Origin: an uncultured archaeon
GTDB lineage: Archaea; Iainarchaeota; Iainarchaeia; Iainarchaeales; JAAZKV01
DNA length: 41,112 nt
Reading direction: 5' to 3'
NCBI GenBank assembly: GCA_964402905.1
Contig: CAYODU010000003.1
Span: 1-41,112, forward strand
Positions 4,192-38,343 of this stretch are shown here, piece by piece (within the stretch, counting starts at the first letter, position 1; each line of letters opens with the position of its first letter). Under the pieces are notes generated by a model, which worked only from the letters and a program-made list of their open reading frames with translations, had not been told where the DNA came from and made no database searches. Position numbers and translations under genes: made by a program.

Positions 4192-4276
4192 TTGGCTCAC
4201 TTTCCACTAGATAGAATGGATGTTTTCTTTAAAAATGTTTCTTGTTTTTGCTTTTTTTGAATCTAAAAGATTGTTT

Positions 4277-4294
4277 GTTCGGCACAGGACCAAG
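4277..4294 (+). promoter_or_regulatory. GTTCGGCAC box (GTTCGGCACAGGACCAAG) upstream of nurA
   Basis: A G+C-rich 9-mer in AT-rich spacer, shared with the herA and rad50 upstream regions. A TATA-like TTTTATAT lies about 15 nt downstream (4302-4309). Confidence 0.55.
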
Positions 4295-4331
4295 AATATT
4301 CTTTTATATGCAACTAAACTCACCTTATTTC

Positions 4332-5408
4332 ATGTATTTTGACAACTTTCTTGATAGTGTTTTTGCCACAGTTTCACAAAAACACTCTTTTCATGAAAGT
4401 ATTACAAAAGAGCTTCTTCCAATAAAATCAGTTTTGTCCCAAAATGGCACTGAAAAAATAGTCGTTTCAGTAAATAAAAGAGTTTTTTCTGGAATAATTG
4501 CCGGCGTTGATTCGGGTTTTGTTTCAAAGAGACTTTCATTTATTGATATTGTATTAATTCGTGTTGCCGGAGCGATTTTTAATTATGAAAATAATATTCT
4601 TGGAAAAGCAGAGTACTATCCAAATGCTTTTTCTTTGCCCGAACCGATTCTACTAAAAGCCGCTCTGGAAAAAGATGAGGAACAGCAAAGTGTTTCTCTT
4701 GAACGCTTGAAAAAAGAAGTGTGTAATTCAATTGAAATAATAGAAAAATTTAAACCCAAATATCTTTTTATTGATGGTTCAATTGTTCCCCAGTACCAGG
4801 ACAAACCTCGTTCTGATTCAGTAATAAATAATGATTATAATTCAGTAGTTGTTTTATTTCAAAAGATGTATTCTCTTGCAGAAAAAAATTCTTGTACTCT
4901 AATTTCTTGTGTCGAAGATTCAAGAGGGACCCGTTTTATTCAATTATTAAGAGAAAAAATTCTTTCTAAAGGGGAAAATCAAAAATCAGAAAAGTTAAAG
5001 GGTTCAATTGATGCGGCTTTCCTTGATTATTTTTTACTTCCAAAAGAAAGAACTTTTTGTTTTCCATATACTTCAAGCACAATAACGCACCCAATTTTGA
5101 AAGATTATGAAAAAAGGTGGGCTGAAAACATTTTTGTTTTTTATTTAAAAGTTTCAGAATTTGATAAGCCCCTAAGAGTAGAATTTATTTCTGGTGCGGG
5201 TAATTTACATGAAAAAGCTGATGAGATAGCTTCAATTGTTTTTTCTCTCTCTTCTTTACACAAAGAATATTCTTATCCAAGTGTTTTGATTGAAGCGGAT
5301 TTGCGTGCTCGCTTAAATGAAGATGATATAAGTATTGTTTATGATAAACTCATTGACAAGCTTGGGCCAAAAATGAGATTGCGAAGAAACTCTCGTCCCT
5401 TTAAATAG
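4332..5408 (+). CDS. nurA: NurA-like 5'-3' nuclease (HerA partner)
   Basis: Contains GVDSGF and FIDGSIVPQ, resembling the NurA acidic catalytic motifs, and herA lies nearby. Start is uncertain: ATG 4332 sits about 25 nt after the TATA-like element, while ATG 4308 and TTG 4242 are also in frame. Confidence 0.6.
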   Translation: MYFDNFLDSVFATVSQKHSFHESITKELLPIKSVLSQNGTEKIVVSVNKRVFSGIIAGVDSGFVSKRLSFIDIVLIRVAGAIFNYENNILGKAEYYPNAFSLPEPILLKAALEKDEEQQSVSLERLKKEVCNSIEIIEKFKPKYLFIDGSIVPQYQDKPRSDSVINNDYNSVVVLFQKMYSLAEKNSCTLISCVEDSRGTRFIQLLREKILSKGENQKSEKLKGSIDAAFLDYFLLPKERTFCFPYTSSTITHPILKDYEKRWAENIFVFYLKVSEFDKPLRVEFISGAGNLHEKADEIASIVFSLSSLHKEYSYPSVLIEADLRARLNEDDISIVYDKLIDKLGPKMRLRRNSRPFK

Positions 5409-5466: not shown

Positions 5467-6138
5467 ATGATTAAAGTAATTGTTTTTGATTTGTGGAGAA
5501 CACTTATCCCAGCGACCATAGATTTTGTGCACCTTATTTCTTTATTAAAAAAAGAGGGTATTGAAAAAGAAGATTTTATCGAACGCTATGAAAAAGCAAC
5601 TCAACTAAAAAAATATAAAAATTTTGAGGAACTTAGAAAAGATTTTTTTAGTGCTTTCAAAGAAGAATCAAATAGTGATTTGGAACAAGAGCTGTACGAA
5701 ATCTACTCAAACCGCTTTGATAAGATACACTTTTTTTCTGATGTAATTTCTGTTCTGGAAAAATTAAAAAAACAAAAGTACAAAATTGCATTGCTTTCAA
5801 ACACAGAAAGCCTTATGGCAAAAGAAATAGAAAAAAAGCTTAAATTCAAAAATTATTTTGACTATTTAGCATATAGTTTTGAAATAGGTTTTATTAAACC
5901 CGATAAAAGAGCGTTTTCTGTTATTGTAAAAAAATTCAAAGTAAAACCAAAAGAAGTTTTAATGGTTGGGGATTCTCTAAGGTGTGATGTTGCTGGGGCA
6001 ATAACTGTTGGGTTTAATAGTTGTCTAATCAATCGCACGGGCACTGTACTTGATTATGCTGATGTTAAACCAGATTTTGAAATTAAATCCTTAAAAGAAA
6101 TCTTTGAAATTTTGGGTGTGTTAAATGCAAAATCCTAA
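5467..6138 (+). CDS. HAD-superfamily hydrolase
   Basis: Motif I VIVFDLWRTL (DxWxT variant lacking the second Asp), motif II LLSNT, motif III/IV K...VGDSLRCD. Confidence 0.7.
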   Translation: MIKVIVFDLWRTLIPATIDFVHLISLLKKEGIEKEDFIERYEKATQLKKYKNFEELRKDFFSAFKEESNSDLEQELYEIYSNRFDKIHFFSDVISVLEKLKKQKYKIALLSNTESLMAKEIEKKLKFKNYFDYLAYSFEIGFIKPDKRAFSVIVKKFKVKPKEVLMVGDSLRCDVAGAITVGFNSCLINRTGTVLDYADVKPDFEIKSLKEIFEILGVLNAKS

Positions 6139-6303: not shown

Positions 6304-7035
6304 ATGGATTTTAAAAATATTTCTAGTAAAAATAAATTTTTGCGCATTCAGTTAATTGATTTTTTTCGCGGTTTAGCTCTTTGTGCAATGTTTATTTTCC
6401 ACTTTTTTTGGAACTTGAATTATTTTGGAATAATTTCTGTGAGTTTGTATTCCGGCTTTTTCGGTTTGTTTCAAAAATCAATTCTTTTTTCTTTCATCTT
6501 TATTTCAGGAATATCTTTTTTTCTTTTCATTCAAAAAAATGGTTTTTCAAAAAAACTTTTAAATCACTTAACTATGTTGTTTGTAGCTTCTCTTGGAATA
6601 ACTATTTTTACTTTTTTGTTATTCCCGAGCCGATTCATTTATTTTGGTGTTATCCACCTGATTATTTTTTCTTGGATTGCCGGAATTGTTTTTGTTAGGT
6701 TCCCTAAAATATCTTTGTGCTCGGGCGTATTTGTTATCTTTGTATCTTTGTTTTTTAACTTACCAAGAATTAGCGCAGGCATATTTTTCTGGCTTGGTTT
6801 TGGTTCTCCTTTACCAGCCCTTGATTTTGTTCCTGTTATTCCCTGGTTTGGTGTTTTTTTAATTGGATTATTTTTTGGAAAATTAGTAATGAAAAATAAA
6901 GCCTTTTTGTCAAAAGTAGTTCTTCCAAAAAAGCTTTCTTTTATTTCAAGTATTGGAAAAAAATCCCTGTTTTTTTATTTGGGCCACCAATTTGTTCTTT
7001 TTCCTTTAGCTTTCTTAATTTATTTCTTTTTTTAG
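6304..7035 (+). CDS. polytopic membrane protein, DUF1624 / heparan-glucosaminide N-acetyltransferase-like
   Basis: N-terminal IQLIDFFRGLALCAMFIFHF resembles the DUF1624 signature. Several hydrophobic helices follow. Confidence 0.55.
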   Translation: MDFKNISSKNKFLRIQLIDFFRGLALCAMFIFHFFWNLNYFGIISVSLYSGFFGLFQKSILFSFIFISGISFFLFIQKNGFSKKLLNHLTMLFVASLGITIFTFLLFPSRFIYFGVIHLIIFSWIAGIVFVRFPKISLCSGVFVIFVSLFFNLPRISAGIFFWLGFGSPLPALDFVPVIPWFGVFLIGLFFGKLVMKNKAFLSKVVLPKKLSFISSIGKKSLFFYLGHQFVLFPLAFLIYFFF

Positions 7036-7052
7036 TTCGGCACGGTACTAAG
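7035..7052 (+). promoter_or_regulatory. GTTCGGCAC box (GTTCGGCACGGTACTAAG) upstream of herA
   Basis: Same 9-mer as at nurA and rad50. A TATA-like TTATTTAAAA (7057-7066) follows, and the herA ATG is at 7097. Confidence 0.55.
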
Positions 7053-7096: not shown

Positions 7097-8617
7097 ATGC
7101 CTGAATTAAATGAGCAGTTAGGAACAGTTGTTTCTACTATGGAAGGGCCTTCTCCAAGTAGAGTAGATTTTGTTGTTAATAATGGAAAAGCTCACAAAGG
7201 AATGTTTGTCGAATTAGAGTATAGCGAAGGCACCATGATTTGCATGGTGGAAGAACTGGTTAAAACAAATCGTTATTTTGAGAGGCCTGATTCAGTAAAA
7301 GCGATTGGCCCAGAGCTTGAAAAAAATTTTCCAATTGCAGATTGGGAATTCCTTTTGGGAAAAGCAAAACCCCTTGGGGTATTTCAAAACAATCGGGTTC
7401 TTCGTTCAACTTTTCCTCCTTCTCCGGGAACAAAAGTTTTTATTGCAAAAAAAGAGCATATAAAAAAGTTTTTGGGTTTAGAAGAAAAGGGACTTGATAT
7501 TGGTGAAATACAATTCCATGAAATTCCACTTAAGTTAAATCTTTCAAAACTATTACAAAAGCACTTGGCAGTTCTTGCAATGAGCGGAGCCGGGAAATCA
7601 TATTTTATTAGTGTTCTAATAGAAGAAATTCTTTCGCGCACAAAAGAACAAGGACAAATAGCTTTAGTTGTTTTTGATACTCACGGGGAGTACACTTGTT
7701 TTGGCGAATCAGCAAAAGAAGGTTTTATGGATTTTTCTTCTAAAACAAGAATAGTTGATGCTAACAAAATAAAAATTGCTTTATCAAATGTTTCTCCAAC
7801 ACTAATTTTTTCTTTGGCTTCTTCTCTAACCCCGGTGCAAAAAAGAGAGTTTGTTAAAATCATTTCAAAATTAAAATCCGAAATGAAATCTGGTGTTGGT
7901 CCATTTGATCTTAACTCTGTGAGAGCAGAAGCGGCTGAGCTCGAACCAAAAACAAGTGCTTCAATAATAAGTGCGGTTGATGAATTAGAACAATTGAATT
8001 TGTTTTCAAAAGTTGATTCGCCAAGTATTTTTGATTTAGTTGTACCTGGGCATTTAGTTGCAATAGATTTGAATGGAATTATTTCAGATAAAAAAAAGCA
8101 GTTAATAGTAGCTTATTTTTCAAATAAATTATTTAATGCGCGTCGCCAGAAAAAAATTGCCCCATTTGCATTGCTTTTAGAAGAAGCCCACAATTTTATT
8201 CCCGAATCAACTGCTGCAGACCATGCTTTAGCCAGAAGTACTTTGCGGACAATTGCAAGAGAGGGAAGAAAATTTGGTTCTGCTTTAATAGTTGTTTCTC
8301 AGCGCCCAAAGCGCCTTGACACTACAACCCTTGCTAATTGCAACACAAACATTATTTTGCGTATAACCAATCCATATGATTTGGATCACATAAAACAGAG
8401 TAGTGAGGGGCTTGATGCGGGAAGTATTAATATGATTTCTTCGCTAAGAGTTGGAGAAGCCCTTGTTGTGGGAGAAGCTGTTAGTGCCCCAACTTTTTTC
8501 AAAGTGCGTTTACGTAAATCCCAGCCAAGTAGACACGAAACAACTCTTGAAGAATCTGCAAAAAGGTTCCAATTAGATGTCATAAAAAAAGATGAAGAAA
8601 CAAATGCTTTTTTATAA
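7097..8617 (+). CDS. herA: HerA-type hexameric DNA helicase/translocase (FtsK-HerA superfamily)
   Basis: Walker A LAMSGAGKSY, Walker B LLLEEAHNFIP, and VSQRPKRLD..ILRITNPYD. The N-terminal beta-barrel-like region starts MPELNEQLGTVV. Confidence 0.85.
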   Translation: MPELNEQLGTVVSTMEGPSPSRVDFVVNNGKAHKGMFVELEYSEGTMICMVEELVKTNRYFERPDSVKAIGPELEKNFPIADWEFLLGKAKPLGVFQNNRVLRSTFPPSPGTKVFIAKKEHIKKFLGLEEKGLDIGEIQFHEIPLKLNLSKLLQKHLAVLAMSGAGKSYFISVLIEEILSRTKEQGQIALVVFDTHGEYTCFGESAKEGFMDFSSKTRIVDANKIKIALSNVSPTLIFSLASSLTPVQKREFVKIISKLKSEMKSGVGPFDLNSVRAEAAELEPKTSASIISAVDELEQLNLFSKVDSPSIFDLVVPGHLVAIDLNGIISDKKKQLIVAYFSNKLFNARRQKKIAPFALLLEEAHNFIPESTAADHALARSTLRTIAREGRKFGSALIVVSQRPKRLDTTTLANCNTNIILRITNPYDLDHIKQSSEGLDAGSINMISSLRVGEALVVGEAVSAPTFFKVRLRKSQPSRHETTLEESAKRFQLDVIKKDEETNAFL

Positions 8618-8630
8618 AATTTATTTCACC

Positions 8631-8649
8631 ACCGGCACGGTAGTCTAAG
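8631..8649 (+). promoter_or_regulatory. variant box (ACCGGCACGGTAGTCTAAG) upstream of the polB-like gene
   Basis: Shares CGGCACGGTA..CTAAG with the herA box. TATA-like TTTATAAA lies at 8655-8662 and the ATG at 8685. Confidence 0.5.
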
Positions 8650-8684: not shown

Positions 8685-10166
8685 ATGCTCCAACACGCAT
8701 ATCTCACAAAGGTTAGTTTCAACCCAGATAAAAAAGAGATTTTGGTGGAGTTTAGTAATAAAGAAACACGGATAGTAAAGCGCTATCCCTTTTTTCCTTT
8801 TTTTGTCCTTCCAAAAGAAATGGGAAAAGAAAAAATAACTGAGTTGTTGCTCGGTTTGGGTTTCAAAAAATTCAGTGTTACTGAGGATGAGAATCTTCAT
8901 ATCTCTGCAGCACACTTTTTTGAATTAAAACAAATGGCTTTTGCTATTGCAAAAGCAACAGATAAAATGCCAGTTGTTGTTGAACCCGAACGTGCATTTT
9001 TAATACAACAAAAATGGACTTATTTTGATTCTTTTTCTTTCGAAAATAATGTTCTAGAAAAAATTTCATCTGAAAAAGAGATTGGTTTTTTCATCACCCC
9101 TGAAATACCATTCAATGAGGCCCTGAGTTTAAATGAAGAAGAAACATTGTTTCTTGTAAAGCAAAGCGCTTTTTCTTCCTTGCTTTTGCTTCCACTAAAC
9201 AAAGTTCCTTCTTCTCCTCAGGAAAAAACAGAAGTTTTTCTTGAAAACATTTTTTTCAAAAAGGGTTTTACTGTTTCTTGGAAAAAAAGTGATTCTCTTT
9301 TTAATCCAAAGCAGTTTGCGCCCACTTGTTCTTTTGATTCTTTTTCAACAATAGATTTTTCTCTTGTGTGGGTACAATTACTTTCAAAAAACTTTTTTAA
9401 TATTGGGCACGATACTCTTAATTGTGATTGTTGTAAACCAATAAAGTTAAATGATAAAAATGTATTGCCTTCTTCACGGATAGAAATTGTTTTTAATGAA
9501 GATTATTTTTTTTATGAATCCTCTTCAGATGCTTTTGCACTTAATTTTCATAAAGAAAATGATTTGAAGGAAAAACGTCTTGAAAAAAAGAAAGAGTTTT
9601 TCATGAAGATGTATCCAGTTGGGCCTTTTTTTAGTGGTCAAAAAGAAAAAGTTCCCCTAAGTGATGCAAAAATGCTTTTGGATACTGGGAAGGTTTCACT
9701 TGAAAAAAATCATTTGTTACAATGGTTTTGTACAAAAAAAGAAAGTTTTCTCTCTGAGGAAATAAGGCAAATAAATACAATGCTTTTTAATTCAAAACAA
9801 ATTATTGAATCTGTTCCAGAGCTTTTTTTATCCACAAAAAAGGTTGGTGCCTATTATACTTTTTTCTTTTCAACAGCCCTGAGTGAAATTGCTTCAGAAA
9901 TACCTTTTCAGTTAACAAATAACTTTTCTCGTTTTTCTTCTTATGGAATCGCTAAAGCGATTTTGTCTATACAAGAAGAAACGCTTTTTCAGTTCAAGAA
10001 GTTTTCTGAGAAAAAAGGTTATAGAATATTGTTCTCTGATAGAAAAAATGTTTTTGTTAAAGGCTTTTCTTCGCTTGCTTTGGCCAAGGGTTTTTCAAAA
10101 GAGCTTTCTCTCCCACAACCAATAATAAAGGGATTTGCAAAGAAAACAAGGGTTCTTGTACAATAA
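8685..10166 (+). CDS. truncated, probably catalytically inactive family-B DNA polymerase homologue
   Basis: 493 aa. The N-terminus (YLTKVSFNPDKKEILVEF..RYPFFPFFVL) resembles the PolB N-terminal domain. FSTIDFSLVWVQLLSKNFFNIGHDTLNCDCCK resembles the motif A region (DFxSLYPSII..HNxSPDTLN..C). RQINTMLFNSKQ resembles a degenerate motif B (KxxxNSxYG). KGYRILFSDRKNVFVKG aligns with motif C, with DTD replaced by SDRKN. I saw no Exo I-III motifs and no thumb-length C-terminus. Confidence 0.6.
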   Translation: MLQHAYLTKVSFNPDKKEILVEFSNKETRIVKRYPFFPFFVLPKEMGKEKITELLLGLGFKKFSVTEDENLHISAAHFFELKQMAFAIAKATDKMPVVVEPERAFLIQQKWTYFDSFSFENNVLEKISSEKEIGFFITPEIPFNEALSLNEEETLFLVKQSAFSSLLLLPLNKVPSSPQEKTEVFLENIFFKKGFTVSWKKSDSLFNPKQFAPTCSFDSFSTIDFSLVWVQLLSKNFFNIGHDTLNCDCCKPIKLNDKNVLPSSRIEIVFNEDYFFYESSSDAFALNFHKENDLKEKRLEKKKEFFMKMYPVGPFFSGQKEKVPLSDAKMLLDTGKVSLEKNHLLQWFCTKKESFLSEEIRQINTMLFNSKQIIESVPELFLSTKKVGAYYTFFFSTALSEIASEIPFQLTNNFSRFSSYGIAKAILSIQEETLFQFKKFSEKKGYRILFSDRKNVFVKGFSSLALAKGFSKELSLPQPIIKGFAKKTRVLVQ

Positions 10167-10276: not shown

Positions 10277-10483
10277 ATGTCAAAACTAACTAGATTTGAA
10301 TTAACTCGTGTTTTAAGTGCAAGGGCACTGCAGTTGTCTCTTGGGGCACCGCCACTAGTAAAAGGCACTAAGGATCTTTCAATGCTTGGGGCTGCAGAAA
10401 AAGAGTACTTGGGAAAAGTTTTGCCTATGAGTGTTCTTAGAAAATATCCAAATGGAAAATTAGTGAGAGTAGAATTAGCTTAG
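10277..10483 (+). CDS. rpoK: DNA-directed RNA polymerase subunit K (Rpo6/omega-like)
   Basis: LTRFELTRVLSARALQLSLGAPPLV is the conserved RpoK/Rpb6 core. A GGTGAG SD-like element precedes the ATG. Confidence 0.9.
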   Translation: MSKLTRFELTRVLSARALQLSLGAPPLVKGTKDLSMLGAAEKEYLGKVLPMSVLRKYPNGKLVRVELA

Positions 10484-10491
10484 GTGTATTA

Positions 10492-10695
10492 ATGGGTAAA
10501 TCAGTTTCTAAGGGATTAAAATACAGGGCAGAAGTTATGTTGCGAGAGTTCCCTGAAAAATTTGGAAAAGATTTTGAAAAAAATAAGTTAGCACTAAATA
10601 CTTTTGAATTAGGTTTATCAAAAACAAATAGAAATGTTGTTGCTGGATTTATAATTCGTCTTGCAAAAAGAAAAGACAAAGAAGCTACTAAGTAA
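10492..10695 (+). CDS. rps17e: 30S ribosomal protein S17e
   Basis: MGK..K..A..ML.EFPEKFGKDFEKNK...SK..RN.VAGFI..L matches the pattern I recall for archaeal S17e. Confidence 0.8.
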   Translation: MGKSVSKGLKYRAEVMLREFPEKFGKDFEKNKLALNTFELGLSKTNRNVVAGFIIRLAKRKDKEATK

Positions 10696-10721: not shown

Positions 10722-12770
10722 TTAATAATTACTTATCTGTTCGCTTTTTGTTGCTTCATCTAAATCCTTGTTTCTTTGTAGTAAATAAAGATTGCTTGTT
10801 GCTGCGCTTTCAAGTTCTTTTTCGTGTGTAATAACAAATATTTGTGTTACTAGTTTTGGTAAATCATCTCGTAACATAGAACTTAATCTTTGGATTGCAT
10901 TAGAATCAAGATTGTGTGTTGGCTCATCCAGTATAAGCATTGATAGTTGTTTTGTGAGCACAAGAGAAAAAGCAATTCTTATACATAGTGCAGCGGCACT
11001 TCTTTCTCCACCAGAAAGAATTCCTTCTACCCTAATCCAAGAATTATTTCTTGTTAGTACTTGTAAATCATAACCGTTTTCCACAACGCACAATCTGGCG
11101 TCTACAAAATCTTTGTATGGATAAATATTGTTCCAGATATTTGACATTGCTTCATTAATTGTTTCAAGGAGTGCTTGTCTTAGTTCTACTTGTGTAGCCA
11201 TTAGGCAATTTCCAAATACTCCAAGTTTCTTTGCAGCCAGATCAGTTCGCTTTATTTCCTCTTCCATTTCAGTAATGCTCTTTTTTATTAAACATATTTT
11301 TTCAAGTGTTTGACGATGGCTTTCTATTAGTTCCTTTGAAGATTTGGTTTTTGCCAGAGCTAATTCTTTTTTTGTTTTTAATTCAAAAAAATCTTTTCGT
11401 GCTTTGCTAAGTTTCTCAGAATCAAAACCAACTTCTTTTATTTCTTTTTCAATAATGGGTAATTGTTTTTGTATTTCTAAAAGTTGTTTTTTCTTCGCAT
11501 CTATACTCTTAGCTTGTTTTTCATCGGCTTGTAGTGAGAAAAGTTCTCTTTTTTTCTCATCAACAATTTTTCTTATTTCCTCAGTTTCTTTTTCTAATAA
11601 AGTAATTTGTTTTTTTAAGTCGTTTATTTTTTTATCAGTTTCTTTTTCTTCTTCAGTAATTTGCTTTATTTCTTTTTGAGCTTTTTCAATATAATCTTTT
11701 TTGTGTTCCTCAGTAAGCTTTTGTTTGCATTTGGGGCAATTTCCATGAAGAAAAGAAATTTCTTTTATTTCTTTTTCCAAGCTACTTTTTCTATAACTAA
11801 TTACTTTCCCTTCTTCAGAAATTACTTTGAGATTTGACTCAATTTTTTCGCACTCTTTTTCTTTTCTGTTTTGTTCTTCAACAGCCAGGGTAGTTTCTTT
11901 TTTTATTTTATCAATTTCTTTTATTATTTCTTCTAGATTAATTTTTTGATTTTCTTTAACATCTTTTTCAATATTTTCTAAAAGAGCTTTATTTGAAATA
12001 ATTTCTTCTTTTAATTTTAAATGCTTTTTTTCTTTTTGTTCAAAAAGAAGATATTCTTTTTCTTTTTCTATAATTTCTTTTCCAATGCCCAAACTTATTT
12101 CTTCTAATTCTTTGAGCATTTGTTCTTCTTCTTTTATCTTTGCAACTATTTTTTCTTCTTCGTGCGACTTAATATTTTCCTTTTGTCTTAATACACTCTC
12201 ATTTTTATCTTTGTTTTCCTTGTTGAACTGATTTTGTAGTGTCAAAGCGTTTTTTCTCGCATTCTCATATTTTTCAAGTTCAAGTAATTCATCAAACTTT
12301 TTTTTTCTTTCACCAGGGCTTAATTTGAGAAAAAAATCTATTTCATTTTGTTCTGCATAAACAGCTCGACTAAATAATTCGTAACTTAACCCAAGTATCA
12401 ATTCAATTTTTTCGTTAACATCTTTTTGTTTTGGCCCCGCTATTAATCTGTTTTCTTTGTAGAGTTTTGCTTCGTTTGTTGAATCAGCATTTATTATTCT
12501 TTCTACGCGATACTTGTCTTCTCCGTGACTAAAAAAAAGTGTTGTCTCTGCTTTTGAACAAGGATTAGGTTTATTCATTATTATTTCGTTTAAAGTAACT
12601 TGCTTACTTTTTAATTGGGGGAAAGTGCCAAATAAGGAGTAGCTAATTGCATTAACTATGGAGCTTTTTCCAGAACCCATTACTCCAACAATAACATTAG
12701 TTCCTTTACCAAAAGTAAAAGTGCTTTCGTGGTGTGTCCGCCAGTTTTTGATTTCCAGTGACTCAATCAT
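10722..12770 (-). CDS. rad50: Rad50 DSB-repair ATPase (SMC-like, with zinc hook)
   Basis: N-terminus MIESLEIKNWRTH, Walker A GVMGSGKSS, long Glu/Lys coiled coils, central CPKC zinc hook, signature LSGGERSAAAL and Walker B MLILDEPTHNLD. The start is set at ATG 12770 rather than the track start 12794. Confidence 0.9.
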   Translation of the reverse strand: MIESLEIKNWRTHHESTFTFGKGTNVIVGVMGSGKSSIVNAISYSLFGTFPQLKSKQVTLNEIIMNKPNPCSKAETTLFFSHGEDKYRVERIINADSTNEAKLYKENRLIAGPKQKDVNEKIELILGLSYELFSRAVYAEQNEIDFFLKLSPGERKKKFDELLELEKYENARKNALTLQNQFNKENKDKNESVLRQKENIKSHEEEKIVAKIKEEEQMLKELEEISLGIGKEIIEKEKEYLLFEQKEKKHLKLKEEIISNKALLENIEKDVKENQKINLEEIIKEIDKIKKETTLAVEEQNRKEKECEKIESNLKVISEEGKVISYRKSSLEKEIKEISFLHGNCPKCKQKLTEEHKKDYIEKAQKEIKQITEEEKETDKKINDLKKQITLLEKETEEIRKIVDEKKRELFSLQADEKQAKSIDAKKKQLLEIQKQLPIIEKEIKEVGFDSEKLSKARKDFFELKTKKELALAKTKSSKELIESHRQTLEKICLIKKSITEMEEEIKRTDLAAKKLGVFGNCLMATQVELRQALLETINEAMSNIWNNIYPYKDFVDARLCVVENGYDLQVLTRNNSWIRVEGILSGGERSAAALCIRIAFSLVLTKQLSMLILDEPTHNLDSNAIQRLSSMLRDDLPKLVTQIFVITHEKELESAATSNLYLLQRNKDLDEATKSEQISNY

Positions 12771-12814: not shown

Positions 12815-12824
12815 CGTGCCGAAC
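12815..12824 (-). promoter_or_regulatory. GTTCGGCACG box upstream of rad50
   Basis: The minus strand reads GTTCGGCACGCCCCCCTCACACTCTTTTTATTG....ATG. The box is followed after 14 nt by a TATA-like TTTTTATTG about 25-30 nt before the rad50 ATG. Confidence 0.55.
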
Positions 12825-13937: not shown

Positions 13938-15329
13938 TCATTCAAACACTTCTTTTCCTTCTAGGTAACTTGTGAACCATTTAGCGAATTCTCCGCGGTA
14001 ATTCCATAAAAGTCTTTTTTCTCCAAGAACAACTCCTTCAAGTAAACTTGTTTTGAGGGGTTGTTTTTCTTCTATTCCTTTTTCTTTTATAAAATCATGG
14101 AGAACTTGGCTTGCGCTTGTTTTTTGTCTCTCAATTTCGATTACAATTCTGTTTCCTTCTATTCTTGGTCCGCTGATAACTATTCTTTTTTTATTCAAAA
14201 ACTTTTTTGTATTTTCTGTATCCTCAGCTTTTGGTCCAATAATTTTCTTTGATTTTTGTAGTGAAAGTGATTCTAGTTCAAAAATAAAGTAAACATCTTT
14301 TTCGTTGCTCCAAAGAGTTTCGCGTAACACAACAAAATCATTTTCTTTTAGATTTACAGAAATCTGTTTTAGTATTCGTCTTAGTTGTCCCCAAACAAGG
14401 TCGGATAGAATTTCTTTTGGAAAATTCATTTTGAATGCAATCAATTCTTTTTTTGAAAGCATTTCTTCAATCAGTTTTTTTGGCCAAGCATTTTTTTTCT
14501 CTTGGAAAAAGAATCTTTCGCTTGGCTTTTCTAAAAATAATTTGCTTGCGAAAACCATTCTCTCAAATTGTTCTCTTGATAATGCTGATGCGACATTTCT
14601 GTTTGGGTCTACGGGGTCAATTATTGTTAGTGGTGAATCAAATGCTGTGCTTTTTTTATTGCTAATTTTTATTTTTGTTTTATATTTCCATTTCGAAATT
14701 GCTTTTAGTGCTCCCTCAATATTTTTGTAGTGAACTATCAGTAATTCTACTCCGTATCCCGGAAGAGCACAATTTTTCAAATCTGCACCATATGCATTTA
14801 TTCCTTTCAAAAATTGTTTTAGTAATCTTGCATCTCCTCTTTGTTTTTTACTCATTTTTTTTAAAAGAAATCTGTTGTGAAAAGGTGTTCTGTCCACAGC
14901 ACTCTTTTTTTCAGAGCCATTTTTTACAATGTAACCTGGAACTATTTCAACATCGAATCCCTTAATATTCCCGCGGAGGTAGGGGTGTTGTGAATAAGCT
15001 TTTTCCCATTCGTGTCCCTTGAATATAATTTCTCCGATTCTTAGTCCTTCAAATTCAAGTTCTTTTTCGCTTAGTTCTTTGTCAAACATCAAAAACAAGT
15101 CAAGGTCTCTATCACCCCGAAGATGTGTTCCTCTTGCACTGCTCCCACACCATTCTAAATGCGAGTGTTTTCCTTCTGTTGCTAAAACCTTTTTTTGTAT
15201 TTCTAAAACAATTTTTTTTTCTTCTTCAATTTCGTTTTGTGTTGGGGTTATGCGTGCAAGAACATTTTTATAAATCTCTTTTCTTTTATTTGCAATATTA
15301 TTTTTTGGCTTTCTTTTTCTTTTATGCAT
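13938..15329 (-). CDS. cca: CCA-adding enzyme (archaeal class I tRNA nucleotidyltransferase)
   Basis: GSSARGTHLRGDRDLDLFLMF is the class I nucleotidyltransferase signature. The size is about 460 aa. Confidence 0.85.
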   Translation of the reverse strand: MHKRKRKPKNNIANKRKEIYKNVLARITPTQNEIEEEKKIVLEIQKKVLATEGKHSHLEWCGSSARGTHLRGDRDLDLFLMFDKELSEKELEFEGLRIGEIIFKGHEWEKAYSQHPYLRGNIKGFDVEIVPGYIVKNGSEKKSAVDRTPFHNRFLLKKMSKKQRGDARLLKQFLKGINAYGADLKNCALPGYGVELLIVHYKNIEGALKAISKWKYKTKIKISNKKSTAFDSPLTIIDPVDPNRNVASALSREQFERMVFASKLFLEKPSERFFFQEKKNAWPKKLIEEMLSKKELIAFKMNFPKEILSDLVWGQLRRILKQISVNLKENDFVVLRETLWSNEKDVYFIFELESLSLQKSKKIIGPKAEDTENTKKFLNKKRIVISGPRIEGNRIVIEIERQKTSASQVLHDFIKEKGIEEKQPLKTSLLEGVVLGEKRLLWNYRGEFAKWFTSYLEGKEVFE

Positions 15330-15369
15330 AATAAGCTTATTATACTACTTTTTATATAAATGATGTTGT

Positions 15370-16905
15370 ATGGATTTTACCGAGCTTCGTTTAAAGAAAA
15401 TCAGCGAGAGTTCTGTGGGAACGGTTTATGCTGGCTTGGCTTATAATTTTTATGAAGTAAAGCAAAATCCTCTTTCAAAAGATGAGGGACGCTTTGCAAT
15501 TTTTTTGGAGCGTTTAATACAACGAAAAGCCCCTTTTTCAGATTTAAAATCATTTAAAGAAATTCCTTCTTCTTTCGCTGATGATTTTAGAGAAGAAGTT
15601 GTTTCTATTGTGGAAATAAATGGCTTGCTTGAAAGAATTCCTCCAAAAAAAGTTTTTGTTGATTTAATAGAAGCAATGATTCGAATTATTTCAAAAATTT
15701 CTTTTATATCTGATAAATCCCTTTTTGCTGAAACAGTTCTCCATAATTCAGTGGGTCTAAAACAATTGTCTTTTTTTTCTCTTGATGATTCACTAGAAGA
15801 ACTCATGATTAATGCGCTTGATGATGTTTTTGTTTTTCACAGGGAACTGGGGGTATGTAAAACAGATTTGGTTTTGGATGAGAAAATTTTTGAAAACATT
15901 ATTCAAAGAGTTGCTTTTAGTGTGGGAAAAAAATTTAATGCAAATGAGCCTTTGCTTGATGCACGGCTTCCCGATGGGAGTAGAGTAAATGCAACTTTTA
16001 GTGAGGTTTCTCCAAAAGGGAGTTCTCTTACAATACGAAAATTCTCGCCAATTCCTCTAACGGTACTTGATTTGATTGAAAATAATACGATTTCAAGTGA
16101 AGCTGCAGCTTTTTTATGGGTGATGGTTGAGGGCTTTGGTTTGAATCCAAAAAATGTTCTTATTGTTGGGGGAACAGCTTCCGGAAAAACAACTTTTCTA
16201 AATATTTTATCAAATTTTATTCGTTTTAATGAAAGAATAATAACTATTGAGGATACTCTTGAAGTTTCTTTGCTTGATAGAAAGAATTGGGTTGCACTTG
16301 AAGCAAAGCATTCTATTGAAAATGAAGTTACAATGGATTCTTTGTTAAAAAATTCTTTGAGAATGCGTCCTGATAGAATAGTTGTTGGAGAAGTCAGGGG
16401 CAGTGAGGCTCTTACTCTCTTTACGGCTATGGATAACGGGCATTCAGGTTGTCTTGGAACAATCCATGCTAACAATGCAAGGGAAACAATCATAAAACTA
16501 CAGGAAAAACCTTTTTCTGTCCCAGAATCAATGCTCCCATTGGTTGATTTGATCGTTGTGATGCAGAGGATTTATTCAAAAGAAAATGGAATGCAGAGAA
16601 GAGTTGTTGAAATAACAGAGCTTTCAAGAATGGACAAAAAAGTTTTGCTTGCAAATGTTTTTGATTTTGATGAATCCAGCGGTGCTCTTAAGCGAACAGA
16701 TTTGCCAAGTCATGTAATTGAGGAGTTTGCTCAACAAAATTCTCTTTCAAAGAATGAAGTAAAAAAAGAAATTGAAACACGGCGACTTATACTTAAATGG
16801 CTAATTGAAAAGAATGTTAGAAAGCCCCTTGAAGTACTAGAATTTTTGCAGAGCTATTATTATGATCCCAAAAAAGTGTTGTCAATGATTTATGGTTCAG
16901 AGTGA
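15370..16905 (+). CDS. type IV filament / secretion ATPase (ArlI/FlaI-VirB11-GspE family), orphan paralogue
   Basis: Walker A GGTASGKTTFLN, ITIEDTLE, RMRPDRIVVGEVRGSEA, GHSGCLGTIHAN. It is a clear paralogue of the 32857..34527 product. Confidence 0.85.
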   Translation: MDFTELRLKKISESSVGTVYAGLAYNFYEVKQNPLSKDEGRFAIFLERLIQRKAPFSDLKSFKEIPSSFADDFREEVVSIVEINGLLERIPPKKVFVDLIEAMIRIISKISFISDKSLFAETVLHNSVGLKQLSFFSLDDSLEELMINALDDVFVFHRELGVCKTDLVLDEKIFENIIQRVAFSVGKKFNANEPLLDARLPDGSRVNATFSEVSPKGSSLTIRKFSPIPLTVLDLIENNTISSEAAAFLWVMVEGFGLNPKNVLIVGGTASGKTTFLNILSNFIRFNERIITIEDTLEVSLLDRKNWVALEAKHSIENEVTMDSLLKNSLRMRPDRIVVGEVRGSEALTLFTAMDNGHSGCLGTIHANNARETIIKLQEKPFSVPESMLPLVDLIVVMQRIYSKENGMQRRVVEITELSRMDKKVLLANVFDFDESSGALKRTDLPSHVIEEFAQQNSLSKNEVKKEIETRRLILKWLIEKNVRKPLEVLEFLQSYYYDPKKVLSMIYGSE

Positions 16906-37053: not shown

Positions 37054-38343
37054 TTGGATTGCTTTTTGTTCTTTTTGGGACTAATTATTTGCATTGTTTT
37101 TGGTGTTGATTTGATTTCTCCTGAATTATGTATTAAGTGCAAGGGAAAATTGCTTTGCGGTTTAACTAAGTGCCCTATACTTGAAAAGAATTTTTCTCAG
37201 ACAAAAATAGTTTCTTCTATTAAAGACAATAATTTTTTCGGAGCTACTCCGCCAGGTTTTTTTGTTTCTTGGCAAAATTATCCAAAAGTTGCGGTAGCGC
37301 CTCTATCTGCTTTGCCTAATGAAGTATCTGAAATGAGTGATTTGCCTGAAAAGTGGTATGGTTTGCCACAGGAAAAAATAATTTCTTTTAGAGAGTCTTT
37401 GTTGCGTTCATACAAAACAATGCCTGTTTCTCTTGCTTCAAATCCAAATTATGAATTACTTGATTTTCAGGAAATTGCAATGGCATCTTCTTTATTGGAA
37501 GTTGAAGTGAATCTGAAAAAAACTCCTTCAAAGGAAACTACTTTTGATTCTTTTTCTGCACCAATGGGTCCGAGTGCCGAACTCTCAAAAATAAGTTTGA
37601 TTGAGAATCCGAAAATTCCAAAAAAAATTGATTATTATTCTAGCGATATTGATGTTAAATCAAATACTGCTTTGATTGAATTGTTTAAAGATGGTTTTCC
37701 TGTTTCGGTTCTTGCAAAAGTTCTTTCAAGTGGTGCTCTTGGAGTTAAAAAAGATAGAAAAATTGTTCCTACTCGCTGGAGCATTACTGCGGTTGATTCT
37801 AATTTATCAAAGCATTTTATTCAAGAAAGTTTGTCGCAAAACAAATTAATTGATTGTTACAAATTATTCCATTCAAAATATTTGGATAATGATTTTTGGG
37901 TTTTGCTAATGCCTTTTCCATGGAGTTTTGAACAAATAGAAGTTTGGTTACCTGGTGGGATATGGACGGTGGGGGCTACAAGTTACCAGGTTTTATCAGA
38001 CCATGAATTTAATTCCGGTTTAAAGGGTTACCCAAAAGAAACTGAGGGGGCTTATTTTGCTTCTCGCCTTGCAATAACGGAGTATCTAAATGAAAAGAAA
38101 ATTAATGCTGCAGCAATTGTTTTCAGAGAAATCGGACAAGATTATGCAGTGCCTCTCGGAGTGTGGCAGATAAGAGAAAATGTTCGTGCGGCGCTAAAAC
38201 AAGAACCGCTTGATTTTTCTGGTATTGATATTGTTCTTGATTTTTTATCAAAGAAACTTGTTGTGCCAATAGAACAATACAAAAAAAAATCTGAATTAAT
38301 AAAATTCTTCAAAACGCAAACAAGAATAAGTCAGTGGTTCTAA
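37054..38343 (+). CDS. nreA: NreA-like DNA repair protein (archaeal Nre family, DUF650/DUF651)
   Basis: The N-terminal LCIKCKGKLLCGLTKCPIL matches the Nre Cys motif as I recall it, and the size of about 410-430 aa fits. Start is uncertain (TTG 37054 or TTG 37111). Confidence 0.6.
   Translation: MDCFLFFLGLIICIVFGVDLISPELCIKCKGKLLCGLTKCPILEKNFSQTKIVSSIKDNNFFGATPPGFFVSWQNYPKVAVAPLSALPNEVSEMSDLPEKWYGLPQEKIISFRESLLRSYKTMPVSLASNPNYELLDFQEIAMASSLLEVEVNLKKTPSKETTFDSFSAPMGPSAELSKISLIENPKIPKKIDYYSSDIDVKSNTALIELFKDGFPVSVLAKVLSSGALGVKKDRKIVPTRWSITAVDSNLSKHFIQESLSQNKLIDCYKLFHSKYLDNDFWVLLMPFPWSFEQIEVWLPGGIWTVGATSYQVLSDHEFNSGLKGYPKETEGAYFASRLAITEYLNEKKINAAAIVFREIGQDYAVPLGVWQIRENVRAALKQEPLDFSGIDIVLDFLSKKLVVPIEQYKKKSELIKFFKTQTRISQWF

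Follow-up and report, generated by a model that had tools for sequence, protein, structure and literature searches.

The stretch of DNA analysed here, referred to as the window, comprises 41,112 nt of an uncultured archaeon of the Iainarchaeota (contig CAYODU010000003.1 of assembly GCA_964402905.1). It carries the genes nurA, herA and rad50 together with an open reading frame (ORF), hereafter the polB-like gene, which starts 67 nt downstream of the end of herA and is the subject of this study. A sequence-only reading of the window had described its product as a miniaturised, apparently dead homologue of family-B DNA polymerases (PolBs) encoded directly behind herA; the ORF listing and the Pfam matches of HerA bear out both the gene and its position, and the peptides quoted in that reading are all found in the translation (YPFFPFFVL at residues 34-42, VVVEPERAFLIQQKW at 97-111, GFFITPE at 134-140 and FSDRKN at 450-455). 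The window has a GC content of 32% and, because its remainder codes for housekeeping genes, we take it to be a chromosomal segment. A viral or mobile origin of the polB-like gene was rejected, with 0 relatives in IMG/VR and housekeeping genes across the window.

Searches with the protein sequence alone do not lead to PolBs. The protein matched nothing in Pfam (E<=0.1), in NCBIfam or in a phmmer search of PDB sequences (E<=10), and the Pfam check proposed by the sequence-only reading came out empty: the DNA_pol_B (PF00136) and DNA_pol_B_exo1 (PF03104) families were absent both for the protein (E<=0.1) and for 47 members of its family (E<=1). The AlphaFold2 (AF2) model, computed from a 47-sequence family alignment, reached a pLDDT of 90.4 and a pTM of 0.89. 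A Foldseek search of the PDB with this model returned 228 matches at E<=1e-3, the best 50 of which are without exception family-B polymerases (E 4.7e-10 to 1.3e-08, probability 1.00), with TM-scores of about 0.5 on the query and about 10% identity; they include the enzymes of Pyrococcus abyssi, KOD, 9°N, Tgo and Pfu, the Pyrobaculum polymerase 5mdn and Escherichia coli Pol II. Among the best 50 matches in BFVD, the named entries were likewise all DNA polymerases. As modelled, then, the fold is that of a PolB N-terminal domain, palm and fingers, and the homology that had been proposed from the letters is recovered, with nothing else among the best 50 PDB matches.

Profile comparisons point in the same direction, although at the level of weak signals. 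The family hidden Markov model (HMM), when run against PDB sequences, placed the PolB 5mdn first (E 0.015) and E. coli Pol II second (E 0.058), with alignments that cover a finger helix and the motif C region and add a weak piece at motif A. Similarly, hhalign comparisons of the family profile with KOD alone and with 22 Thermococcales PolBs were weak (E 0.0045-0.028) and colinear, pairing FFPF with FEPY, the PERxFLI segments with each other, and GYRILFSDRKN with GFKVIYSDTDG. These hhalign alignments are of low probability and serve as a guide to the mapping, not as proof. The KOD sequence used was checked for identity to 1wns, and since the KOD homologue search gave Thermococcales only (>=74% identity), the PolB profile is not a diverse one.

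The protein belongs to a sizeable family. A word-indexed protein search retrieved 75 full-length homologues at 27-54% identity, all annotated as 'hypothetical', and the named ones come from Diapherotrites, Iainarchaeum or 'ainarchaeum' metagenome-assembled genomes (MAGs); in the NCBI taxonomy, Ca. Iainarchaeum is assigned to Ca. Iainarchaeota of the kingdom Nanobdellati (DPANN). A profile search of 1.84 billion representatives yielded 251 representative clusters at E<=1e-3, of which 138 reached E<=1e-30. Family lengths are 460-546 aa and, because the best 150 of the 251 matches never exceed 546 aa, the family appears as a discrete and uniformly short group; no full-length PolB linking it to active enzymes was found among these 150. 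Furthermore, a survey with one genome for each GTDB species found 42 loci with a relative of the polB-like gene, all in Iainarchaeia-type MAGs, including the complete genome of Forterrea multitransposorum and two MAGs that carry a Micrarchaeota label. The family alignment of 47 sequences holds 16 invariant columns, and both this conservation and the confidence of the AF2 model led us to reject a pseudogene or a chance ORF. In our literature searches no account of the family came up, and the text of a 2020 survey of PolB diversity (PMC7544198), as far as term searches reach into it, holds nothing like it.

Mapped onto a PolB by profile alignments and the secondary structure of the model (Table 1), the protein shows which parts of a polymerase have been kept and which have been lost; column frequencies below refer to 152 full-length family members. 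The N-terminal domain is well preserved (P38 in 150, F105 and L106 in 151, R103 in 145), and hhalign reproduces the FFPF/FEPY and PERxFLI pairings by which the sequence-only reading had recognised it. Of the 3'-5' exonuclease domain, which spans about 195 aa in KOD, some 45 residues are left, modelled as only a beta hairpin and short helices, and the claim that most of this domain is gone therefore holds; the identification of GFFITPE with Exo I could not be reproduced, since GFFITPE pairs, at a weak level, with the strand that follows Exo I, while Exo I itself falls into a gap. HMMER and hhalign both align the region that had been taken for motif A with motif A of PolBs: (I/L)DFSxVW can still be recognised in it, the SLYPS part has been lost, and position 224 is Asp in 123 members (81%), Asn in 19, Ser in 3 and Glu in 2. 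As to motif B, the stretch singled out earlier, RQINTMLFNSKQ (residues 361-372), belongs to the first finger helix, and HMMER places the KxxxNSxYG helix at residues ~395-412 (STALSEIASEIPFQLTN). The loss of Lys and Tyr-Gly that had been read there nonetheless stands, for no conserved Lys, Asn, Tyr or Gly is found in the corrected region. Motif C was placed correctly, as the profile alignments pair FSDRKN with YSDTDG and YGDTDS. The family consensus at this motif is H/Y-S/A-N-K-K-K, no acidic residue is conserved in it, and position 452 is Asn in 45 members, Asp in 21, Ser in 19 and Gly in 16. The protein ends 38 aa beyond FSDRKN, and not roughly 25 aa as had been estimated, at the point where the thumb of KOD begins; a thumb is missing, as claimed. 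We also rejected the idea of a PIP box (QPxIxxF) at the C-terminus, because Q478 (48/152) and F484 (60/152) are poorly conserved and the segment is predicted to be a palm strand.

Because the exonuclease domain, the thumb and the metal- and dNTP-binding residues are lost, synthesis or degradation of DNA in the manner of a PolB is not to be expected from this protein, and the column frequencies at motifs A to C indicate that neither the polymerase nor the exonuclease chemistry is under selection. The fold is thus recovered but the Pfam families, motifs B and C, the exonuclease domain and the thumb are not, which makes the protein a homologue but no enzyme of the PolB family. The description as miniaturised and apparently dead extends in this way from one sequence to its relatives, and we are highly confident that the protein is PolB-derived and catalytically inactive.

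What has been retained most strictly, and is the centre of strong purifying selection, is a feature that the sequence-only reading did not contain, namely a family-specific insertion between palm and fingers that is bracketed by four cysteines (Cys4). C247, C249, C250, C349 and G313 are invariant in 152/152 members, R298, D327 and W347 are each kept in 150/152, as is P38, and PxGP (311-314) is among the conserved motifs of the insertion; most of the top-conserved residues sit in it or on its edges. In the hhalign mapping, the gap between Cys428 and Cys442 of KOD measures 13 residues vs 98 in its equivalent here. Modelled alone, the insertion reached an AF2 pLDDT of 94.1, and Foldseek against the PDB returned no match at E<=1e-3. 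The P domain of Pol epsilon was rejected at the level of the fold, as Pol epsilon does not occur among the best 50 of these matches. The best, non-significant matches are B-domains of GINS, led by the Gins51 C-domain 5ghr_B (E 0.052, probability 1.0, TMt 0.70, rmsd 2.7); about 30 of the best 50 are GINS subunits, all at E >= 0.05. Pfam Gins51_C matches only 2-3 family members at E 0.03-0.08, which is the level of noise, and homology to GINS B-domains was not confirmed by sequence searches, so that the resemblance is to be treated as a lead only. The four cysteines may form a zinc or iron-sulphur (Fe-S) site or a disulphide clamp, and the insertion would probably provide a docking surface for a partner.

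How far the family has moved from known polymerases is best seen by comparison. With the active archaeal PolBs (KOD, Pfu/Pab, 5mdn) and E. coli Pol II, its best Foldseek matches, it shares the fold of the N-terminal domain, palm and fingers, recognisable remnants of FEPY and of the segment from motif A to ..GC, and cysteines at the positions of the KOD pair C428/C442; it differs from them by about 10% identity, an exonuclease domain cut to about 45 aa, an absent thumb, destroyed motifs B and C and an added Cys4 insertion of about 100 aa. The inactivated archaeal PolB2 (B2) group of Rogozin et al. 2008 has a disrupted YGDTD and no clear Exo I, and a structural role was proposed for it, yet these proteins are still highly similar to active PolBs, with a complete architecture and with the distal Asp of motif C in place (PMC2527604), and some of them appear active according to a passage in PMC7544198. 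The present family resembles PolB2 as a conserved archaeal PolB paralogue with a broken motif C and no clear Exo I. Unlike PolB2, it has neither the overall similarity nor the full architecture nor a conserved motif C Asp; it is restricted to Iainarchaeia, and its genomic link is with nurA, herA and rad50, not with replication genes.

Eukaryotic Pol epsilon offers two further points of comparison. Its C-terminal module is described in a passage of PMC7544198 as a dead, PolB-derived scaffold that contacts a hexameric helicase complex, and by analogy the polB-like gene adjoins the gene of the hexameric HerA. The module differs in being eukaryotic, in being fused to an active PolB and in keeping an inactive exonuclease domain, and the best 50 Foldseek matches in the PDB gave no sign of a specific affinity to it in structure or sequence. 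The other point concerns the [4Fe-4S] CysX motif in the catalytic half of Pol epsilon, whose human cysteines C651, C654, C663 and C747 stand at the base of its palm-fingers insertion (PMC11638069). Here, too, three cysteines after motif A are followed by a palm-fingers insertion and a fourth cysteine (C247, C249, C250 ... C349), but the spacing is CxCC vs Cx2Cx8C, the protein is inactive, its metal content is putative and the insertion does not have the fold of the P domain. Overall, the family is a new and extreme variant of the inactivated-PolB theme.

Evidence on function comes from a promoter element and from the gene neighbourhood. In the window, YCGGCAC occurs 6 times vs 1.31 expected, a count reached in no shuffle, and CGGCACG occurs 3 times vs 0.30 expected; 4 of the 6 YCGGCAC sites lie 52-60 nt before the ATGs of nurA, herA, the polB-like gene and rad50, each followed after about 20 nt by a TATA-like element. 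The placement of the TATA-like TTTATAAA of the polB-like gene relative to its box is conserved in relatives and, judged from these letters, suggests a promoter of its own and a leaderless or short-leader mRNA. Another YCGGCAC, at 37574-37580 on the minus strand, is antisense inside the Nre gene and probably a chance occurrence.

In relatives, where we required CCGG[CA]A or TCGGCA followed 45-66 nt downstream by an in-frame ATG (background 1.4% per scanned window), the box precedes the polB-like gene in 29/40 loci, at a spacing of 51-56 nt, nurA in 11/24, herA in 6/30 and rad50 in 4/31, and is found before the HAD hydrolase gene in 0/21, the CCA enzyme gene in 0/24 and the T2SSE ATPase gene in 0/23. 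Under a stricter rule (box, AT-rich tract and ATG), 50 of the 59 sites in ~777 kb precede nurA, herA, the polB-like gene or rad50. The shared upstream box that the sequence-only reading had noticed therefore extends to relatives. Furthermore, where the box has diverged, it has changed jointly in the promoters of nurA and the polB-like gene, to AGGGGAA in loci L005 and L043 and to CCGGAAATCCACTCT in L036 and L037. Among the lines of evidence that do not rely on gene order, this co-change is the strongest for placing the gene in a nurA-herA(-rad50) regulon. The box also occurs in 3 loci 51 nt before the ATG of a ~280-284-aa protein with a weak LAGLIDADG_3 match (E 5.8e-4; L002 16744-17595 on the plus strand, L017 17375, L019 14680), which may be a further member of the regulon or a box-binding factor.

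Gene order was followed by tblastn of the window proteins on 47 related loci (L001 to L047; 43 non-redundant) together with called genes. The arrangement nurA-(HAD)-herA-polB-like with a convergent rad50 recurs in 40/47 loci (38/43 non-redundant, the tally that the association test uses for loci with at least one of herA, nurA and rad50), with identity of the PolB-like protein down to 28%. Conserved linkage to herA, whose absence the sequence-only reading had named as grounds for giving up its own claim, is present: herA lies directly upstream on the same strand in 34/47 loci, over the same range of identity. The gap between the two genes is sometimes filled, by an opposite-strand asparaginase gene in L001 and by 2.5-2.9 kb in L017 and L023, and because unrelated genes intervene in some loci the two are not obligatorily co-transcribed.

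In the classical archaeal operon of herA, mre11, rad50 and nurA, it is usually mre11 that follows herA. The present arrangement is similar in that nurA, herA and rad50 form a cluster and seem to share their regulation, with the polB-like gene directly after herA. It differs in gene order and orientation, in having a HAD hydrolase gene and the polB-like gene as extra conserved members, and in its lack of an Mre11-like ORF: a search for phosphoesterases of this type by the signature GNH[DE], preceded by DxH and GD, came back empty for the window and for the 47 loci (736 kb). In the scans of L001 to L047, rad50 has no mre11 neighbour and is convergent with the polB-like gene.

Table 1. Genes, protein segments and promoter elements of the window (residue numbers refer to the PolB-like protein).
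Feature	Position	Strand	Evidence or remark
Box TCGGCAC	4279-4285	+	53 nt upstream of probable nurA ATG 4332
nurA	4332-5408 (ORF 4242-5408)	+	Pfam; probable ATG 4332
HAD hydrolase gene	5467-6138	+	Pfam
HGSNAT-like membrane protein gene	6304-7035	+	Pfam HGSNAT_cat, E 8.7e-53
Box TCGGCAC	7037-7043	+	60 nt upstream of probable herA ATG 7097
herA	7097-8617	+	Pfam PF01935 (DUF87) and HAS-barrel
Box CCGGCAC	8632-8638	+	53 nt upstream of polB-like ATG
TATA-like TTTATAAA	8654-8661	+	~27 nt upstream of polB-like ATG
polB-like gene	8685-10166	+	ATG start, 493 aa; ORF listing and translation
Residues 1-110, counterpart of PolB N-terminal domain (FFPF, PERxFLIxKxW)	8685-9014	+	hhalign to KOD 3-127
Residues 111-155, exonuclease-domain remnant	9015-9149	+	No Exo I-III; flanks align to KOD ~127 and ~325
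Residues 156-195, helices returning to N-terminal domain			FLENIFF aligned with VEWFLL
Residues 196-250, first palm segment			Motif A (ID224FSLVW) and NIGHDTLNC247DC249C250
Motif A region, residues 220-251, FSTID224FSLVW...NIGHDTLNC247DC249C250K	9342-9437	+	HMMER, hhalign to (L)DFRSLYPS
Residues 251-346, family-specific insertion between palm and fingers	9435-9722	+	Most conserved segment
W347-F-C349, fourth invariant Cys before first finger helix	9723-9731	+	Aligns with RFC442KDFPGFIPS of KOD
Residues 355-411, two long helices equivalent to PolB fingers	9747-9917	+	AF2 helices 355-376 and 387-411; HMMER to 5mdn and Pol II
Residues 420-489, second palm segment			With motif C hairpin
Motif C equivalent F450-S-D-R-K-N455, instead of Y-x-D-T-D	10032-10049	+	Aligned to YGDTDS, YSDTDG
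rpoK	10277-10483		Between polB-like gene and rad50; Pfam
S17e gene	10492-10695		Between polB-like gene and rad50; Pfam
rad50	10722-12770	-	682 aa, Zn hook; convergent with polB-like gene; Pfam
Box TCGGCAC	12816-12822	-	52 nt upstream of probable rad50 ATG 12770
Genes for CCA-adding enzyme, ThrRS, eRF1-like protein, ABCE1, type IV pilus/T2SS proteins, Nre	Rest of window		Pfam

Several observations on the neighbouring genes are worth recording. The listed TTG starts of nurA (4242), herA (7082) and rad50 (12794) are probably over-extended; we favour ATG 4332, 7097 and 12770, because the spacing from box to ATG and the Pfam N-termini fit these better, and the SMC_N profile begins at residue 1 of Rad50 when translated from ATG 12770. 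The Zn hook of Rad50 lies at residues 331-374. A typical archaeal Rad50 has about 880 aa, which would make the coiled coil around the hook much shortened in this 682-aa protein. The HAD gene is kept between nurA and herA in most related loci (for example at 6236-6913 in L001 and 7431-8102 in L002) and, as it has no box of its own, nurA, the HAD gene and herA are probably co-transcribed; its product shows a weak match to the PNK3P-like (polynucleotide 3'-phosphatase) family of Pfam (E 0.02) and could, on this evidence, be an end-cleaning phosphatase. The HGSNAT_cat-type gene stands between the HAD gene and herA in the window, and none is called there in L001, L002 and L005. Elsewhere in the window, the intergenic stretch 15329-15370 between the CCA-adding enzyme gene (minus strand) and the T2SSE ATPase gene (plus strand) is a short divergent promoter region with the palindrome ATAATAAGCTTATTAT, which is almost unchanged in the upstream sequences of most related loci. 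The gene for Nre, a PCNA-associated DNA-repair factor, lies at 37054-38343 on the plus strand (Nre_N E 5.5e-86, Nre_C E 2.6e-32).

What could an inactive polymerase do in such company? On balance we lean towards a non-catalytic accessory of the break-resection machinery. The protein would be produced alongside HerA-NurA and Rad50, and the cleft left over between its N-terminal domain, palm and fingers may recognise a DNA end or a junction of single- and double-stranded DNA; alternatively or additionally, the Cys4 insertion could act as an adaptor that contacts HerA-NurA or Rad50. Either way, the protein would load or regulate end resection. A bolder version, which we regard as quite doubtful, would make it a core subunit of an Mre11-less resection machine in Iainarchaeia, that is, a PolB-derived end or junction module which has taken the slot of mre11 after herA and connects HerA-NurA with Rad50 by means of its Cys4 insertion, a sensor of redox state or metal and possibly of the Fe-S type. 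If true, the CysX/P-domain arrangement, so far considered unique to eukaryotic Pol epsilon, would have an archaeal equivalent in the four cysteines and the insertion.

This leaves a number of points that weigh against an accessory role in resection. Firstly, the wider block is syntenic too (rpoK, S17e, EF-1beta, the CCA enzyme and the T2SSE ATPase), and because housekeeping genes share it, synteny alone does not prove a function and could be historical. Secondly, in a Forterrea-like clade (L003, L004, L039, L044 and L047) the gene is found away from nurA, herA and rad50 and without the box, beside glycosyltransferase genes and Alba, with all invariant residues retained, and the function of the protein may therefore not depend strictly on these neighbours. 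Additionally, herA and rad50 are boxed only in a minority of relatives, the residue-level mapping on PolB leans on hhalign alignments with probabilities of <8%, and the interaction and DNA-binding steps are inferred throughout. As for the cysteines, the equivalent pair in KOD reportedly forms a disulphide, and metal binding by CxCC...C is putative. As a separate observation, the polB-like genes of the Forterrea-like clade have another conserved upstream element, TTGTGAAA ... ATAGATTATG, in place of the CCGGCA box.

The alternative that survives best, although we consider it unlikely, is that the protein serves the replisome as a structural subunit which binds the helicase, GINS, GAN or PolD, and that its place next to herA is merely inherited gene order. 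Inactive PolB modules have precedents as structural parts of replisomes (PMC2527604 and, in the passages concerned, PMC7544198), the best structural matches of the insertion are the GINS B-domains described above, the syntenic block is rich in housekeeping genes, and in the Forterrea-like clade the gene stands apart from herA. On the other hand, the likeness to GINS is not significant by either Foldseek or Pfam, and a replisome scaffold would leave aside both the specificity of the box for nurA, herA, the polB-like gene and rad50 and its co-variation between the nurA and polB-like promoters. Very unlikely, in our view, is a second alternative, in which a PolB-derived regulator or sensor, binding either to damaged DNA or directly to the box, governs nurA-herA and rad50 as well as its own gene. 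A regulatory role had also been allowed by the sequence-only reading, and the promoter of the polB-like gene is the one boxed most consistently and at a fixed distance (29/40 at 51-56 nt vs 11/24 for nurA), a pattern that we take to be typical of autoregulated regulators; neither a helix-turn-helix nor another sequence-specific DNA-binding domain was found, however, with PolBs only among the best 50 Foldseek matches, and the boxed LAGLIDADG-like protein of ~284 aa is an alternative candidate for such a factor. To our knowledge, the PolB fold has no precedent as a transcription factor. Finally, we can give hardly any credence to a cryptic enzyme, a minimal polymerase or nucleotidyltransferase for translesion synthesis or gap filling with relocated catalytic residues, as with PolB2/Dpo2: B2 PolBs were predicted dead and later reported in error-prone synthesis (Feng 2020, as cited in a passage of PMC7544198), the motif A Asp survives in most members, and D327 (150/152), E304 and E353 (both ~85%) are conserved acidic residues, but no carboxylate is invariant in either palm motif, motif C carries Asn, Lys or Ser residues, the Lys/Tyr-Gly of motif B and the thumb that would hold the duplex are missing, and D327 belongs to the insertion, outside the palm sheet.

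If the link to resection is real, the accessory role that we favour would mean that end resection in archaea has an additional component, non-catalytic and not expected there, and this in a lineage in which no mre11 adjoins rad50. Irrespective of this link, the family, in which exonuclease domain and thumb are both gone, is far more reduced than known inactivated polymerases, and after Pol epsilon it is a second example of palm and fingers separated by an insertion that is clamped by cysteines. It is also invisible to sequence-profile libraries, and some 250 clusters of 'hypothetical proteins' now gain an evidence-based annotation. Furthermore, the shared box defines a candidate DNA-damage regulon for an uncultivated class of DPANN archaea.

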